Shown here piece by piece: positions 40,814 to 58,650 of a stretch of 64,000 nucleotides of DNA. Positions within the stretch are counted from its first letter, which is position 1; each line of letters starts with the position of its first letter. Made by a program: the position numbers and the translations under genes. The DNA lies in NCBI GenBank assembly GCA_963752045.1, contig CAVVWN010000002.1, positions 31,498 to 95,497 of the forward strand. Reading direction: 5' to 3'. Below the pieces are notes generated by a model. It had not been told where the DNA came from. It ran no database searches and saw nothing but the letters and a program-made list of their open reading frames with translations. This stretch comes from an uncultured Acidobacteriota bacterium. GTDB lineage: Bacteria; Acidobacteriota; Vicinamibacteria; Vicinamibacterales; SCN-69-37.

Positions 40814-41821
40814 GTGCGCCTGTTCCTGCTCGTCGCCGCGACGCTCATCGGGTTCGCCTCCAACTCGCTCCTCACCCGGGGCGCGCTCGGGAGCGGCCTG
40901 CTCGATCCGGCAACGTTCACGCTCGTCCGCCTGGTGACCGGCGCGCTGACGCTTGCGCTGCTCGTCCGGCTGCGCGGGCGCCGGGCAGGCGGCGACGAGT
41001 CGTGGGGTTCTGCGCTCTGGCTCGTCGGATACGCGATCACGTTCACGCTCGCCTACGTGCGCATCGGCGCCGCCGCCGGCGCGCTGCTGCTCTTCGGTGC
41101 CGTGCAGGTGACGATGATCGGGGCGGGCCTGGTCAGCGGCGAACGGCCGGCGCGCATCGACTGGGCCGGCGTGGCCCTCGCGCTCGCGGGCCTCGTGGTT
41201 CTCACGCTGCCGGGACTCACGGCCCCGGATCTCGCCGGAGCGGCGCTGATGCTCGTGGCGGGCGTGTGCTGGGGCGCCTACTCGCTGGCCGGACGCGCGG
41301 GAGCGGACCCTCTGGGGCGCACCGCCCGAAACTTCGCGCGCGCGGGCCTCCTGGCAGTCCCGTTCATGCTCGTCTCGTTGGGCAGCGTGGAGGTGACGCC
41401 GACCGGACTGTGGCTGGCCGTGGCGTCCGGATCGCTCGCGTCGGGCGTGGCCTACACCCTGTGGTACATGACGCTGCCCAGCCTGGCCGCGTGGCGCGCT
41501 GCCGTCATTCAACTGATCGTGCCGGTCGTCACGGCGCTCGGCGCCGCCCTGCTCCTCGCCGAAGCGATCACGCCGAGACTCGTGGCGGCCACGGCACTGG
41601 TCGCCGCCGGCGTGTGGCTCACCGTCTGGCCGTCGCGGCACCCGCGGTCCGCGTCGGCGCACTCGGGCCCAGGCGACCGTTCCGTCCCGGCGATGATCGG
41701 CCGATCGACAATTCAGGGCCAGACTCCAGCCGATTGCGCTATCTTGTCTTTCGCGCCCGCCAGGCGCCCGACGAGGAGACCGACGCACGATGTCCGAACG
41801 CACCGCCCCATCGCTCGCTAA
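40814..41821 (+). CDS. DMT/EamA family transporter
   Basis: FASNSLL, GALLLFGAVQVTMI, WGAYSL, ASGVAYTLWY; about 10 TM helices; last ~50 codons look like a non-conserved extension. Confidence 0.85.
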   Translation: MRLFLLVAATLIGFASNSLLTRGALGSGLLDPATFTLVRLVTGALTLALLVRLRGRRAGGDESWGSALWLVGYAITFTLAYVRIGAAAGALLLFGAVQVTMIGAGLVSGERPARIDWAGVALALAGLVVLTLPGLTAPDLAGAALMLVAGVCWGAYSLAGRAGADPLGRTARNFARAGLLAVPFMLVSLGSVEVTPTGLWLAVASGSLASGVAYTLWYMTLPSLAAWRAAVIQLIVPVVTALGAALLLAEAITPRLVAATALVAAGVWLTVWPSRHPRSASAHSGPGDRSVPAMIGRSTIQGQTPADCAILSFAPARRPTRRPTHDVRTHRPIAR

Positions 41822-42080
41822 GCTCGACGAGCTCATCCCGCGCCTCGTCGCGGCCAAGGGCACCCCCGACGCCGACCGCTTGATTGAGGAAGCCCAGGCC
41901 CTCCGCCGGGCCGTCGCCGCGTTCCACATGGAGGCCATTCGCTTCCGCATGCACGCGGTGGACCGGCTGATCAGGTTGACCGGCGACGACGTGATGTCGC
42001 GCCAATTGTTCGAGGAACTGCGGACCACGCTCGAGGCGGCAGGGTTCCACACGCGGTCGCACGCGGCGCCGGGTCAGTAG
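41790..42080 (+). CDS. Small hypothetical protein (96 aa)
   Basis: GAGGAG RBS; LRRAVAAFHMEAIRFRM..LEAAGFHTRSH; typical codon usage. Confidence 0.7.
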   Translation: MSERTAPSLAKLDELIPRLVAAKGTPDADRLIEEAQALRRAVAAFHMEAIRFRMHAVDRLIRLTGDDVMSRQLFEELRTTLEAAGFHTRSHAAPGQ

Positions 42081-42081
42081 G

Positions 42082-42130
42082 GGATCTGAGATCTGGGATC
42101 TGGGATCTGGGATCTGGGATCTGGGATCTG
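42082..42130. repeat. Heptamer tandem repeat (GGATCTG)x7
   Basis: Seven units, one variant AGATCTG; degenerate units again at 42483-42515. Confidence 0.95.
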
Positions 42131-42144
42131 CTGACGAAACTGCA

Positions 42145-42407
42145 ACCGTTGAGAACGTGGAGTGCATGGAGAACCTCCGGCGACCACAAGCCGCAGCAGC
42201 GCTTGGTCGCCGTGGCCGCGAGCGGCGCTCGCGCGGCCTCCGGCCGCGGGCGTCGGGTCCGACCGGGCGCCGATGAGCCGCCGAGTGGGGTGGCCCGGCG
42301 CCGGACGGGGCGGCTCGTCGGCGCCCGGTCGGACCCGACGGTCCACGGCGACCGGTTGACCACACGGGACGGCCGGCGTACCTCCACGGGCTCCACGTCT
42401 CCACGGT
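42145..42407 (+). repeat. 263-bp structured dispersed repeat, copy 1 (MITE/REPIN-like or ncRNA)
   Basis: Highly similar to the reverse complement of 57584-57846; imperfect terminal inverted repeats; 32-bp internal stem 42251-42282/42309-42340. Confidence 0.9.
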
Positions 42408-42554
42408 CCCCCGGCCCTGCCGTCCGGTACCGCCACAGGCATGTTCGTCGTGTGTGGGCGTCGCGGCACGCGACGCGAACAACTGGGATCTGCAATCTGC
42501 AATGTGGGATCTGGGAGTGTCGGAGGGGCGGGCTTCGGTCGCCGCGTTCCAGGC

Positions 42555-43274
42555 TCACGGCTCACCGAAGAGGGTTGCGAGCACGCGGTCGGTGGGCTCG
42601 AGATTCTCGAGCTCGGGGACCGACGCGTCGGGTGAGGCCAGTCCGAGCCGATTGAACCAGACGGCGCGTATGCCGACATCACGGGCACCGGTGATGTCGG
42701 TGTGCCACGCGTCGCCCAGCATCACCGCTTCTCCCGAACCCGCGCCGCCGGCTTCGAGCGCCACTTCGAAAATGCGCCGGGCCGGCTTCGAGACGCCGAC
42801 CTCTTCCGACGTGACGAGCGCCGAGGCGTGGCGCGCCAGCCCGACGCGCTCGAGCTTGCGGCGCTGCTCGGCCACGCCGTTGTTGGTCACGATCACCACG
42901 GGCACGCCTCTGTGGCCGAGCGTGGTGACAAGCGCAATCGCGCCAGGCACGGCCTGCCAGGCTCGCTCGTAGGCCGTGCGATAGAAGGTCGCTGCCGCCT
43001 CCGCGCGGTCTCCGATACGGTCGGCTCCGGCGGCCTCGAGCAGCCGGCCGAACCGCTCCCGCCGCGCCTCGTCAATCGTGCGCCGCCCGGCGAGCACGTC
43101 CACGTGCAGCTCTTCGAGAATCCCGGCATGCCGGTGCTCCAGCTCGGCCGCCGGCCAGCGTTCGAAGGCCGGCTCCTCGCTCCGGAGCTCGGCCAACGCG
43201 GCCCGCGTGGCGTGCCGGTGGTCGAACAGGGTATCGTCGAGATCGCAAAGCACGGCTCGGATTGGGCCGGACAT
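42555..43274 (-). CDS. HAD family hydrolase
   Basis: DLDDTL motif I, VTNN, KPARRIF, LGDAWHTDI. Confidence 0.9.
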   Translation of the reverse strand: MSGPIRAVLCDLDDTLFDHRHATRAALAELRSEEPAFERWPAAELEHRHAGILEELHVDVLAGRRTIDEARRERFGRLLEAAGADRIGDRAEAAATFYRTAYERAWQAVPGAIALVTTLGHRGVPVVIVTNNGVAEQRRKLERVGLARHASALVTSEEVGVSKPARRIFEVALEAGGAGSGEAVMLGDAWHTDITGARDVGIRAVWFNRLGLASPDASVPELENLEPTDRVLATLFGEP

Positions 43275-43372
43275 ATAATCATTGTAGTTCTCGTCGCGCC
43301 TGATGCTCGGACGCCCGGTGGGGCGCGGAGCGCGAGGCACGACGCGCGTCTTTCTCATTGAAGGAGTCACGA

Positions 43373-55755: not shown

Positions 55756-56910
55756 ATGAAACTCACAAAGAAAGCACGATTCTCAACCATCTGCATCCAC
55801 GCCGGCCAGACGCCGGACCCGGGAACCGGCGCCATCATCACGCCGATCTTCCAGACGTCCACCTACGTGCAGGACGCGGTCGGGCAGCACAAGGGCTACG
55901 AGTACGCCCGCACGCAGAACCCGACGCGATCGGCGGTCGAAGCCAATCTGGCGGCGATCGAGGGCGGCAAGGCGGCCTTCGCCTACGCCTCGGGGATGTC
56001 GGCCATCAACGCCATCGTCTCCCGGCTGTCGTCGGGCGACCACGTGATCGTCACCGACAACACGTACGGCGGCACGTTCCGCCTGTTCGACAAGGTGATG
56101 ACGCGGTTCGGGCTGACGTTCAGCTTTGTCGACACGTCGAACCTCGACGCCGTCGCGGGCGCCTTCACGGACCGTACGAAGCTCGTCTTCATCGAGACAC
56201 CGACCAACCCGGTGCTTCGGCTCACCGACATCGCCGCCGTGGCCCACGAGGCACACCGGCATGGCGCCACGCTCGTCGTCGACAACACGTTCGCCAGCCC
56301 CTGCCTGCAGCGCCCCATCGAGCTCGGCGCGGACCTCGTCATGCACAGCACGACGAAGTACCTCAACGGGCACAGCGACTCGATCGGCGGCGTCGTCGTC
56401 GCCACGCGTGACGAGGACATCGAGTGGCTGCGGTTCATCCAGAACTCGGCCGGCGCCATCCTGAGCCCGTTCGACTCGTGGCTGGTGCTGCGCGGCACGA
56501 AGACGCTGACGCTTCGGATGGCGCAGCACTCGGCGAACGGCCTGGGCCTGGCCACCTACCTCAGTGAGCACCCGAAGGTCACGCGCGTCATTTACCCCGG
56601 CCTGCCGAGCCATCCGCAGCACGAGCTGGCCAGACGGCAGATGCCCAACGGCTGCGGCGGCATGCTGTCGTTCGAAGTGGCCTCTCCCGACGAGGCGAGG
56701 CGCGTGCTGAACCGGTTCAAGCTCATGGCGCTCGCCGAGAGTCTCGGCGGCGTCGAAACGCTCGTGTGCCACCCGGCGTCGATGACGCACGCCTCGGTGC
56801 CGCCCGAACGGCGGGCCGCCATCGGCCTCTCCGACAGCCTCATCCGAATCTCGGCCGGCATCGAGGACCTGGCCGATCTCACCGAAGACCTCGCTCAGGC
56901 ACTCGACTGA
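55756..56910 (+). CDS. Cystathionine gamma-synthase/lyase family PLP enzyme
   Basis: YEYARTQNPTR, IETPTNP, VDNTF, HSTTKYLNGHSD, AESLGGVE. Confidence 0.93.
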   Translation: MKLTKKARFSTICIHAGQTPDPGTGAIITPIFQTSTYVQDAVGQHKGYEYARTQNPTRSAVEANLAAIEGGKAAFAYASGMSAINAIVSRLSSGDHVIVTDNTYGGTFRLFDKVMTRFGLTFSFVDTSNLDAVAGAFTDRTKLVFIETPTNPVLRLTDIAAVAHEAHRHGATLVVDNTFASPCLQRPIELGADLVMHSTTKYLNGHSDSIGGVVVATRDEDIEWLRFIQNSAGAILSPFDSWLVLRGTKTLTLRMAQHSANGLGLATYLSEHPKVTRVIYPGLPSHPQHELARRQMPNGCGGMLSFEVASPDEARRVLNRFKLMALAESLGGVETLVCHPASMTHASVPPERRAAIGLSDSLIRISAGIEDLADLTEDLAQALD

Positions 56911-57527
56911 TGACCGCCGGCGGGTTGCTCGCGGCGCCGCGGCGCTGGGTCCGTTCGCTCTACGACTGGACGATGCACTGGGCCGACACGCGCTTTGCGC
57001 TGTCGGCGCTCTTCGTCATTGCGTTTGCCGAGTCGTCGTTCTTCCCGGTGCCGCCCGACGTGCTGCTCATCGCCATCGTCGCCGCCAACCCGGCCCGATG
57101 GCTCGTGGCTGGCACGCTGTGCACGGCCGGATCCGTCCTCGGCGCCCTTCTCGGCTACGTCATCGGACAGGCGTTCATGGCGACGGTGGGCCAACCGATC
57201 GTGGATTTCTATGGGGCGCAGGCCGCGTGGGACGAAGTGGTGGCCCTCTACACCGGGACGTGGGGTGTGTGGTTCCTGGCGGCGGCGGCCTTCACGCCGA
57301 TCCCCTACAAGGTAGCCACGATTGCCGCCGGCGCGACGGGCATGCCCATCGTGCCGTTCGTCTTCGTGAGCGCGATCGGCAGAGCCGGCCGGTTCTTCCT
57401 GGTCGCCGGCCTGCTCCGCATGTTCGGCTCGCCGATCCGGACGTTCCTCGAGAAGCACTTCGACGCGATGGCCCTGCTCTTCGTCGCGCTGCTCGTGGGC
57501 GGGTTTCTGGTCATTCGCTGGCTATAG
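56910..57527 (+). CDS. YqaA/DedA family membrane protein
   Basis: FAESSFFPVPPDVLL, GSVLGALLGY, FTPIPYKV, GRAGRFFL. Confidence 0.9.
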   Translation: MTAGGLLAAPRRWVRSLYDWTMHWADTRFALSALFVIAFAESSFFPVPPDVLLIAIVAANPARWLVAGTLCTAGSVLGALLGYVIGQAFMATVGQPIVDFYGAQAAWDEVVALYTGTWGVWFLAAAAFTPIPYKVATIAAGATGMPIVPFVFVSAIGRAGRFFLVAGLLRMFGSPIRTFLEKHFDAMALLFVALLVGGFLVIRWL

Positions 57528-57529
57528 TT

Positions 57530-57577
57530 CCCAGATCCCAGATTCCAGATTCCAGATCCCAGATCCCAGGTCCCAGT
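57530..57577. repeat. Heptamer tandem repeat (CCAGATC/CCAGATT, about 6-7 units), reverse orientation of the 42082 array
   Basis: cccagat cccagat tccagat tccagat cccagat cccaggt cccagt. Confidence 0.9.
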
Positions 57578-57583
57578 TGTTCG

Positions 57584-57846
57584 ACCGTGGAGACGTGGAG
57601 CCCGTGGAGGTGCGCCTCCGCCCCGTGTCGTCCACCGGTCGCCGTGGCCCCGTCGGGTTCGACCGGGCGCCGACGAGCCGCCCCGGACTGGGCCGGCCCC
57701 CCGGACTCGGCGGCTCATCGGCGCCCGGCCGAACCCGACGCCGGCGGCCGGAGGCCGCGCGAGCGCCGCTCGCGGCCACGGCGACCAAGCGCTGCAGCGG
57801 CTTGTGGTCGCCGGAGGTTCTCCATGAACTCCACGTTCTCAACGGT
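57584..57846 (-). repeat. 263-bp structured dispersed repeat, copy 2
   Basis: Reverse complement matches 42145-42407; same length. Confidence 0.9.
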
Positions 57847-57864
57847 GGTCTTTTCGTAGCAGAT

Positions 57865-58197
57865 TCACGATTCCCTCTTCGGCCCGACGCTTCGTTCCAC
57901 CCAGCGCAGGTAATCCTCGCTCCCGTCGATAACAGGAATGACAAGGAACTCGGGCACTTCGTAGGGGTGTCTGGCCCGCACGAGCTCCCAGAGGGCGTCG
58001 GCGTGCTCGGACGTGGTTTTGATGATGAGTTGCTGTTCCTGGTCGATCTGGGGCACGCCTTGCCAGGTGTAGACCGAGCGGATGCCGGGAACGATGTTGA
58101 CGCAGGCGGCCAGGCCCGAGCCGACGAGCTCCTGGGCAAACGGCGTCGCCTCGAAATCACCGGGGAGCGTCGTGACGGCCATGACGAGTTCACTCAT
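57865..58197 (-). CDS. cutA: Divalent-cation tolerance protein CutA
   Basis: LAACVNI..SVYTWQG..LIIKT..HPYEVPE..YLRWV; GAGG RBS. Confidence 0.92.
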   Translation of the reverse strand: MSELVMAVTTLPGDFEATPFAQELVGSGLAACVNIVPGIRSVYTWQGVPQIDQEQQLIIKTTSEHADALWELVRARHPYEVPEFLVIPVIDGSEDYLRWVERSVGPKRES

Positions 58198-58251
58198 GCG
58201 CGTATTTTCCTCTTGTACGGGCGAAAGAAAACTGATAAAAGAAGGACGTTC

Positions 58252-58650
58252 ATGATCCCGGACCCGGCCACCCCGTCGCATGAAGATCGTCCACCGAGTC
58301 GCCGTGCGCGTCGGCGGCTCGAGCCGGCGCATGCCGTCCGCGCGCGCCGGCGCCGCCTGCTCGGCTGGGCGGTGTTCGGGGTGTCGTGCCTGCTGATGGT
58401 CAACGCTCTCGTCGGCGACAACGGCTACCTGGCCACGGTGAGGGCCCAGCGGGAATACGACGCGCTCGAGGCGAGCCTGGCGAAGATCCGTTACGAGAAT
58501 CTGCAGCTGCGCAACGGCATCCGGCGCATGCACGACGACCTGACGGCGCTCGAGGAAGTGGCCCGGGGTGAGCACGGCCTGATGCGGCCGGGCGAGACCG
58601 TCGTGATTCTGAAAGACCCCTCCAGAGACACACCCGCCCCCAACCGGTAG
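58252..58650 (+). CDS. ftsB: Septum formation initiator (FtsB/DivIC family)
   Basis: TM helix, GDNGYL, coiled coil, ALEEVARGEHGLMRPGETV. Confidence 0.82.
   Translation: MIPDPATPSHEDRPPSRRARRRLEPAHAVRARRRRLLGWAVFGVSCLLMVNALVGDNGYLATVRAQREYDALEASLAKIRYENLQLRNGIRRMHDDLTALEEVARGEHGLMRPGETVVILKDPSRDTPAPNR

Follow-up and report, generated by a model that had tools for sequence, protein, structure and literature searches.

Small hairpin repeats fill the intergenic space of bacterial genomes, and for most families both the mover and the reason for the shape are obscure. BOX, ERIC/IRU and Correia elements are non-coding, multi-copy and modular, fold strongly, are co-transcribed with their neighbours and may occur in tandem. 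Repeats of the REPIN/RAYT kind are short, gene-less intergenic hairpins that, according to the available text of PMC3337134, are thought to move as folded single strands. Tandem heptamer arrays are usually kept separate from such inverted-repeat hairpin elements; the accessible part of one report describes G-rich intergenic heptamers in Xanthomonas (GGGAATC) and Nostoc, often in convergent pairs and preferentially <50 bp from a stop codon (Rehm et al. 2015, PMC4692102). Here we describe an element that joins the two classes, a branched hairpin between GGRATCT heptamers, of which two copies (A and B) lie in a 64,000-nucleotide stretch of the genome of an uncultured acidobacterium (the window, G000:C2:31498-95497).

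We regard the element as a lineage-specific, non-autonomous mobile hairpin repeat that is co-transcribed with the upstream gene, a reading that we consider probable by a modest measure. It belongs to the hairpin-forming intergenic repeats, as an array-armed sub-kind. [quoted passage not shown] With BOX, ERIC/IRU and Correia elements it shares a modular, multi-copy, folding and non-coding intergenic nature, but it is unrelated to them in sequence and has neither terminal inverted repeats nor a TA-type duplication. We know of no BOX, ERIC/IRU or Correia family that combines a four-way junction covarying between sub-families with a near-absolute sense polarity. Unlike REPINs it is branched, and it has three times their length; the test for a cognate transposase was negative. 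Its likeness to the heptamer class of Rehm et al. (PMC4692102) is limited to the flanking arrays, which are tandem, intergenic, near stops and found in convergent pairs; here, direct arrays flank a structured cargo and travel with it, an arrangement not described in the available text of that report. Three handles are offered by this family: a covarying branched fold, a gene-linked polarity that replication does not explain, and helices that resist mutation in single copies.

Copy number, unit architecture and fold

The genome (G000) comprises 5.0 Mb in 16 contigs, with 68% G+C and a completeness of 93%. A first-pass annotation of the window had proposed a dispersed element of 263 bp, with one copy at 42145-42407 on the forward strand and a second at 57584-57846 on the reverse strand. 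Both copies were recovered, with 92% identity over 264 alignment columns, and a BLASTN count with one 263-nt copy bore out the dispersed repeat: there are 15 near-full loci (at least 237 of 263 nt aligned, 86-100% identity, query included) and 8 partial loci, with the central hairpin absent from two of the latter. All of these loci are intergenic. Model R1, which scores the core, gave 53 matches in the genome, equivalent to 32 distinct forward-strand loci (15 main-family copies, 3 damaged main-family copies, 13 divergent cores and 1 partial locus). The divergent cores are single-copy, have TGGAG/CTCCA arrays of their own and the common fold, and are without linker, tail or heptamers.

With 43 candidates scored in each genome, R1 detected the core in 2 of 70 other genomes of the taxonomic family; in the order, with 20 candidates scored in each, none of 150 other genomes gave a match. 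A BLASTN search with 376 nt against 60 relatives returned only 42-nt matches at chance level. When a degenerate core pattern was run over ~185,000 species genomes, 60 loci were retrieved and 2 passed R1, both in one Acidobacteriota record; six pattern matches in Vicinamibacterales were rejected as response regulator coding sequence. An exact core string of 33 nt matched one contig among the metagenome contigs. There was no confirmed match in viral contigs (the searches gave 0 and 2 non-confirmed matches) and none in the plasmid and phage collections. The family had not been recognised at first sight, and neither was it found in Rfam 15: at the gathering score the window holds two tRNAs only, and the best sub-threshold match over 42000-42600 reached 18.5 bits against a cut-off of 40. 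A literature search, largely at the level of abstracts, did not find a description of the element.

Alignment of the copies with their flanks enlarged the repeated unit from the proposed 263 bp to ~350 bp by adding linker, tail and heptamers. The order of parts is GGRATCT unit(s), a linker of 13-15 nt, left arm, spacer, core, spacer, right arm, tail and again GGRATCT units. Copy A is complete, and copy B is without the tail except for a short remnant. A tail of ~75 nt is present in 12 of the 15 near-full copies, the exceptions being copy B, one copy with a shortened tail and one that has lost its 3' end. In a separate search of the genome all 16 long matches to the tail adjoined a copy or a fragment, and apart from the element there was no match >23 nt. 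Linker and tail travel with the hairpin as one asymmetric unit.

The short flanks said to be shared by copies A and B are present, and the suggestion that the heptamers are part of the unit holds across the genome, with an exact or one-off heptamer at both ends of all near-full copies but one, which is 5'-truncated. The heptamers are co-oriented with the element in every case, including all 10 arrays that adjoin a copy; being direct throughout, and oriented like the element, the arrays behave as part of it. The number of units varies between copies and the junctions are constant. Left and right units are identical in 3 of 11 copies compared by eye, and both ends are always of the same heptamer type. 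At G000:C8:681134-681857 two non-identical copies stand head to tail and share one or two heptamer units. The ends had been described as imperfect inverted repeats built from three TGGAG-like units; three such units do occur on each side, but these arms are internal, and the true ends of the unit are direct heptamers. Open reading frames cross the element, but a coding element was rejected, because apex indels of 1, 2, 6 and 7 nt separate the copies and no reading frame is kept.

Every core, some 150 nt in length, folds into one four-way junction (-105 to -163 kcal/mol), which is made up of P1 (11 bp), P2 (7 bp and a triloop), P3 (5 bp and a triloop) and P4 (~32 bp, variable at the apex). Pairing between the two arms lengthens P1 into a long stem. 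Both nested stems noted in the window copies, the GGTCGCCGTGG/CCACGGCGACC stem and the hairpin of ~32 bp, were found, and so was the compensatory C-G to U-A change between them (alignment columns 55/138). In an alignment of 14 main-family and 6 divergent cores covariation is strong, with compensatory changes at 27 of the 55 predicted pairs and 97.9% of the alignment cells paired. The observed values were not attained in any of 500 column shuffles, and controls in which the partner was displaced by 1-3 columns had only 3-8 compensatory pairs. A distal stretch of P4 is conserved in sequence and the remainder of P4 covaries; the helices are near-perfect, and there are no conserved unpaired bases. 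In the Acidobacteriota record, which is of another genus, the arms are CGGAG/CTCCG instead of TGGAG/CTCCA, and therefore arm and counter-arm change together.

The covariation shows that the structure matters. It does not name the strand or the molecule, because a near-perfect palindrome pairs on both strands and its arms may correct each other. P2 reads GCGNAGC, with all four bases represented at N, in 12 of the 13 divergent cores and in all three cores of other genomes; the main family is without the motif. In the available text of PMC13037366, GCGNAGC is an extraordinarily stable DNA mini-hairpin, and this form of P2 may hint at DNA as the folded molecule.

Orientation relative to genes and constraint on the helices

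Genes were called with a codon-usage scorer, which missed the CutA1 gene beside copy B. The upstream gene is co-oriented with the element in 14 of the 15 main copies (13 by the gene caller, plus CutA1), and the one copy that differs has divergent genes on its two sides. The first heptamer or linker follows the stop codon at a distance of 0-85 nt, and several stops fall inside the first unit. Between co-directional genes, 13 cores are in sense (6 main, 7 divergent) and 1 is in antisense. The pattern is weaker in the divergent cores alone, of which 8 of 13 share their orientation with the upstream gene and 11 of 13 with the downstream gene. Since no more than 12 of 28 cores agree in orientation with the sign of the local GC skew (genes agree in 56.5%), the polarity follows the neighbouring gene and not the replication strand. 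Nor do the heptamer arrays impose it, as the 40 single arrays have no polarity (12 sense-sense and 12 antisense-antisense placements). The element would form the 3' end of the upstream gene's transcript, and we infer that its polarity comes from transcription, through the route of insertion or through selection on the transcript, rather than from replication.

Divergence from the family consensus is graded along the unit. It is 0-1.2% in P1, P2 and P3, 1.9-3.2% in the P4 arms, 2.5-2.9% in the 9-mer arms, 6.6-8.9% in the spacers and tail, and 16.9% in the linker. The hairpin loop was correctly described as diverging freely, with the apex 15.8% off the consensus compared with 2-3% for the P4 arms. 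Of the variants seen in a single copy, 23 fall in the 167 paired columns and 67 in the 171 unpaired columns (Fisher test, p = 1.6e-7). This constraint on paired columns fits selection on each inserted copy, differences between unsampled source copies, or self-correction of the hairpin.

Mismatches in the hairpin had been said to be G-U pairs in one orientation only. This is real in the window copies and in the main family, whose consensus has 4 G-U and 0 A-C pairs, and all 15 copies of which form the more stable fold on the sense strand (36 G-U pairs on that strand, 9 on the other). It is absent from 12 divergent cores, in which the sense strand is the more stable in 4 (G-U pairs 22 versus 24, Wilcoxon p 0.57), and it is mostly inherited from the founder. 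Strand asymmetry is therefore weak evidence overall, because the 15 copies share a founder and the divergent cores show none. The wider proposal of strand-specific selection is favoured by the orientation relative to genes and by the private stem changes in the main family, 11 of which give G-U and 4 A-C; the divergent cores, whose two strands are equal in folding, do not favour it.

Site turnover and explanations for the spread

Empty sites had been named as a check on mobility. We compared eight loci with a same-genus genome, G001 (86% complete, 270 contigs), and four were informative; at the others there was no match, the flanks lay on different contigs (twice), or the contig ended 77 nt before the site. 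The element is absent from all four informative orthologous loci. G001 has 51 bp at the copy B site compared with 345 bp in G000, and 85 bp compared with 447 bp at G000:C8:252402, and at the copy A site it is ~530 bp shorter and has a small open reading frame inverted. At the fourth locus, G000:C6:60651, where G000 has a divergent core, the interval is 317 bp in G001 and 704 bp in G000 and the core is absent from G001. The G001 counterpart has a canonical hairpin and T-run terminator directly behind the stop codon; in G000 an armed core stands in the terminator's place, with the T-run retained behind the right arm. The terminator of G001 (C138:12440-12500, orthologous to G000:C6:60516-60920) is a perfect hairpin with a bidirectional look.

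In a genome of another genus, G004, the region orthologous to window positions 42080-42560 (C12:135680-136060) carries a different, A+T-richer hairpin with 9-mer arms of the CATGAAG type. Judged from the sequences, the gene junction of copy A has been colonised independently in that genus. Turnover is also seen within copies. On a metagenome contig of a sister strain, with flanks 98% identical, the copy at G000:C14:627247 has had P4 removed between short direct repeats, and the P4 hairpin is missing from two copies in G000 as well. Such clean P4 deletions are the decay expected of palindromic DNA.

In the reading as a mobile hairpin repeat the parts fit together as follows. In the core module the inverted 9-mer arms close a long stem that has the four-way junction (P1, two triloop hairpins and the 32-bp hairpin) at its tip. 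The module exists in many versions in the genome, and the main family has gained the 5' linker and 3' tail and spreads as one asymmetric unit of ~350 bp between co-oriented GGRATCT units. Movement may take place through a folded single strand that is recognised by an enzyme supplied in trans. A bolder version, which we regard as doubtful, is that the four-way junction on its repeat-armed stem is the recognition structure of an undescribed, transcription-linked DNA movement; copying would proceed from or into the sense strand (non-template or RNA) at gene 3' ends and would involve neither inverted ends nor a target duplication, and the element would replace the terminator and stay selected in the message. 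Should the polarity stem from the route of insertion, a new transposition mechanism would be indicated, and should it stem from selection, mobile elements would supply genes with 3'-end structures. If neither source holds, an uncultured acidobacterium has one further repeat specific to its lineage.

Several results weigh against a mobile repeat. Pairwise identity between copies has a median of 92%, and as the best pair is only 97.3% identical there is no sign of current activity. Substitution-resistant helices are unexpected for dead selfish copies and are fitted equally by function in place or by self-correction, and the divergent cores, as described above, have no preferred strand. At the true ends of the unit there are no terminal inverted repeats, the heptamers being co-oriented and linker and tail unrelated. 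A target duplication could not be demonstrated, either from the ends of the copies or from the empty sites of G001, which are too diverged for base-by-base alignment. No mobilising gene for the element was found in the 93%-complete genome, which has 0 matches to the TnpB zinc-ribbon and 0 to the RVT_1 reverse transcriptase. Copies enclosing an open reading frame had been suggested as a place to look, and no gene lies between TGGAG/CTCCA arms in the genome. No parent insertion sequence with matching ends was found, either from these arms in the genome or in the plasmid and phage collections. The element is not a textbook MITE, as one of the earlier suggestions would have it: its ends are direct heptamers in place of inverted repeats, and these searches gave no parent insertion sequence.

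The alternative that survives best is a cis-acting RNA module, the fold of which would be selected site by site at the 3' end of the transcript, as a terminator, exonuclease barrier or RNase III-type site, with mobility merely distributing it. We think this unlikely, but give it some weight. The sense polarity behind stops (14 of 15) and its independence of GC skew agree with such a module, as do private substitutions that are about three times rarer in helices, the excess of private G-U over A-C changes (11 versus 4) in a family with a consensus of 4 G-U and 0 A-C pairs, and the canonical terminator of G001 where G000 has a divergent member with a retained T-run. That member, at G000:C6:60651, is the only one with a T-run; none stands behind the main-family stem, and a scan for intrinsic terminator-like sites gave 0 in 41900-42700. 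Six main and seven divergent cores lie between co-directional genes, where termination could harm, and the divergent cores are without strand asymmetry. P4 has been lost three times with the remainder kept. A four-way junction with a sequence-conserved P4 box exceeds the needs of a stabiliser, and the GCGNAGC form of P2 is, in the available text of PMC13037366, a stable motif of DNA.

Spread without an enzyme, by homologous recombination between GGRATCT arrays with a circle excised and re-integrated into another array, appears improbable. The genome has 92 GGRATCT arrays of at least two exact units, 82 of them not beside the element; many are foldback elements with defined outer ends that often provide a TGA stop. 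The direct arrays on both sides, the variable unit numbers with constant junctions, the head-to-tail pair that shares one or two units, and a linker and tail that resemble hitch-hiking unique sequence are what such recombination would leave. Yet 42 of the 82 other arrays form convergent pairs, and none of the 15 copies is accompanied by an inverted arm, over 330 nt on the downstream side and 160 nt on the upstream side. With respect to genes the single arrays are unpolarised (12 versus 12) while 14 of 15 copies of the element are polarised, and several copies have a solitary unit on each side, a length insufficient for RecA-type recombination.

A REPIN- or PATE-like single-stranded DNA element, moved by a Y1 (HUH) transposase from a RAYT-like gene or a lost IS200/IS605 relative, is in our view quite improbable. 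The unit would suit such an element in having no inverted terminal repeats, a hairpin (42459-42475) ~10 nt from its 3' end, a constant short sequence before its 5' end and, in the wider family, GCGNAGC mini-hairpins of DNA type, and there is one Y1_Tnp gene in the genome (G000:C6:4678-5019, 38.6 bits, RAYT-like). That gene lies inside nested 28-bp inverted repeats of its own, which recur as ~24 doublets unrelated to the element. It was rejected as the mobiliser, and with it a REPIN reading that relies on it, because its flanking repeats form a different family. A GAATCTG word beside the Y1 gene falls in the variable part of the Y1-linked REPINs. There is no TnpB, and the agreement of orientation with GC skew (12 of 28) is contrary to the prediction of lagging-strand insertion, so that both marks of the IS200/IS605 type are missing. 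The Y1 locus is of interest in its own right. It lies between purN and purM (G000:C6:4545-5250) and its HUH motif is visible; the gene-less doublets of ~120 bp are spread genome-wide, often directly behind stop codons. On sequence grounds, gene and doublets together make up a REPIN/RAYT system of textbook form in this uncultured acidobacterium.

Small RNA genes that stand alone, or retron-like templates in which P1 would be a1/a2, the msr hairpins would correspond to P2 and P3 and the msd hairpin to P4, are exceedingly improbable: the strongly covarying fold would match retron non-coding RNA in its order (a P1-like pairing, two small hairpins and one long hairpin), but there is no RVT_1, no promoter-like site and no Rfam match, near-perfect helices are without conserved unpaired bases, and a free-standing non-coding RNA gene, as had been suggested, is unlikely because no copy is kept at orthologous sites.

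The window copies and related arrays in the genome

Both copies in the window lie between convergent genes and beside heptamer arrays, as had been noted (Table 1).

Table 1 Parts of copies A and B and their neighbouring genes, in window coordinates
Feature	Position	Strand	Remarks
Gene upstream of copy A	41790..42080	+	Open reading frame, co-oriented with copy A
Copy A 5' array	42081..42129	+	Seven GGRATCT-type heptamers, directly 3' of the TAG stop (42078-42080) of the co-oriented open reading frame
Copy A 5' linker	42130..42144	+	CTACGAAAA-type; family-wide, the most variable part (16.9% off consensus)
Copy A left arm	42145..42178	+	Three TGGAG-type 9-mers, pairing with the right arm
Copy A four-way-junction core	42205..42353	+	119.7 bits with model R1
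Copy A P1	42205-42215 with 42343-42353	+	Core helix
Copy A P2 hairpin	42217-42233	+	
Copy A P3 hairpin	42234-42246	+	
Copy A P4 long hairpin	42252-42282 with 42309-42339	+	Variable apex 42283-42308
Copy A right arm	42380..42407	+	Three CTCCA-type 9-mers
Copy A 3' tail	42408..42484	+	Small hairpin 42459-42475; CAACT at end
Copy A 3' heptamers	42485..42517	+	Partly degenerate; orientation as 5' array
HAD hydrolase gene	42555..43370	-	Convergent, beside copy A
VTT-domain gene	56766..57527	+	Convergent, beside copy B
Copy B 3' array	57526..57574	-	Seven co-oriented heptamers, overlapping the TAG stop of the convergent VTT-domain gene
Copy B tail remnant	57575..57583	-	Final nine tail bases; other ~68 nt deleted
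Copy B arms and core	57584..57846	-	Left arm 57813-57846, core 57637-57786 (P1-P4; 123.7 bits with model R1), right arm 57584-57611
Copy B heptamer unit and linker	57847..57866	-	Unit overlapping the TGA stop of CutA1, which is co-oriented
CutA1 gene	57865..58575	-	Upstream of copy B, co-oriented; convergent with the VTT-domain gene

The element had also been taken for a possible gene-less relative of small cassettes flanked by short repeats, and its TGGAG arms do tie it to the array-armed hairpin elements, of which this genome has examples at its PF05635 loci. All four PF05635 four-helix-bundle genes lie between inverted arrays, each with a different repeat unit. The likeness consists in inverted short-repeat arrays that serve as the arms of a long intergenic hairpin enclosing a cargo (here three TGGAG against three CTCCA units). 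Unlike those loci, whose arms are of other units, the element is gene-less, has added a linker, tail and direct heptamers, and has multiplied. The four genes, of the 23S rRNA intervening-sequence protein family, are at G000:C14:153894, C4:135053, C4:203723 and C5:250193.

Other arrays of the same kinds occur away from the element. Satellite-like arrays with a period of 42-50 nt and a TGGAG 9-mer triplet in each unit, the make-up of the element's arms, are present with no core adjoining at G000:C12:130117-130611, C8:901301-901639, C14:652475-652623 and C14:511797-512019. GGRATCT arrays adjoin 4 of the 48 tRNA genes. At G000:C8:508577-508887 a tRNA-Met gene (CAT, 508634-508709) has inverted arrays of 7 and 6 units on its two sides, within 90 nt, an arrangement that resembles a processing stem. 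A whole moeA-like gene (373 aa) lies between inverted GGRATCT arrays at G000:C14:57197-58519, the left array ending ~10 nt before an in-frame ATG. One contig, G000:C13 (68.8 kb), has 62% G+C compared with 68-69% elsewhere and may be foreign or mobile DNA.

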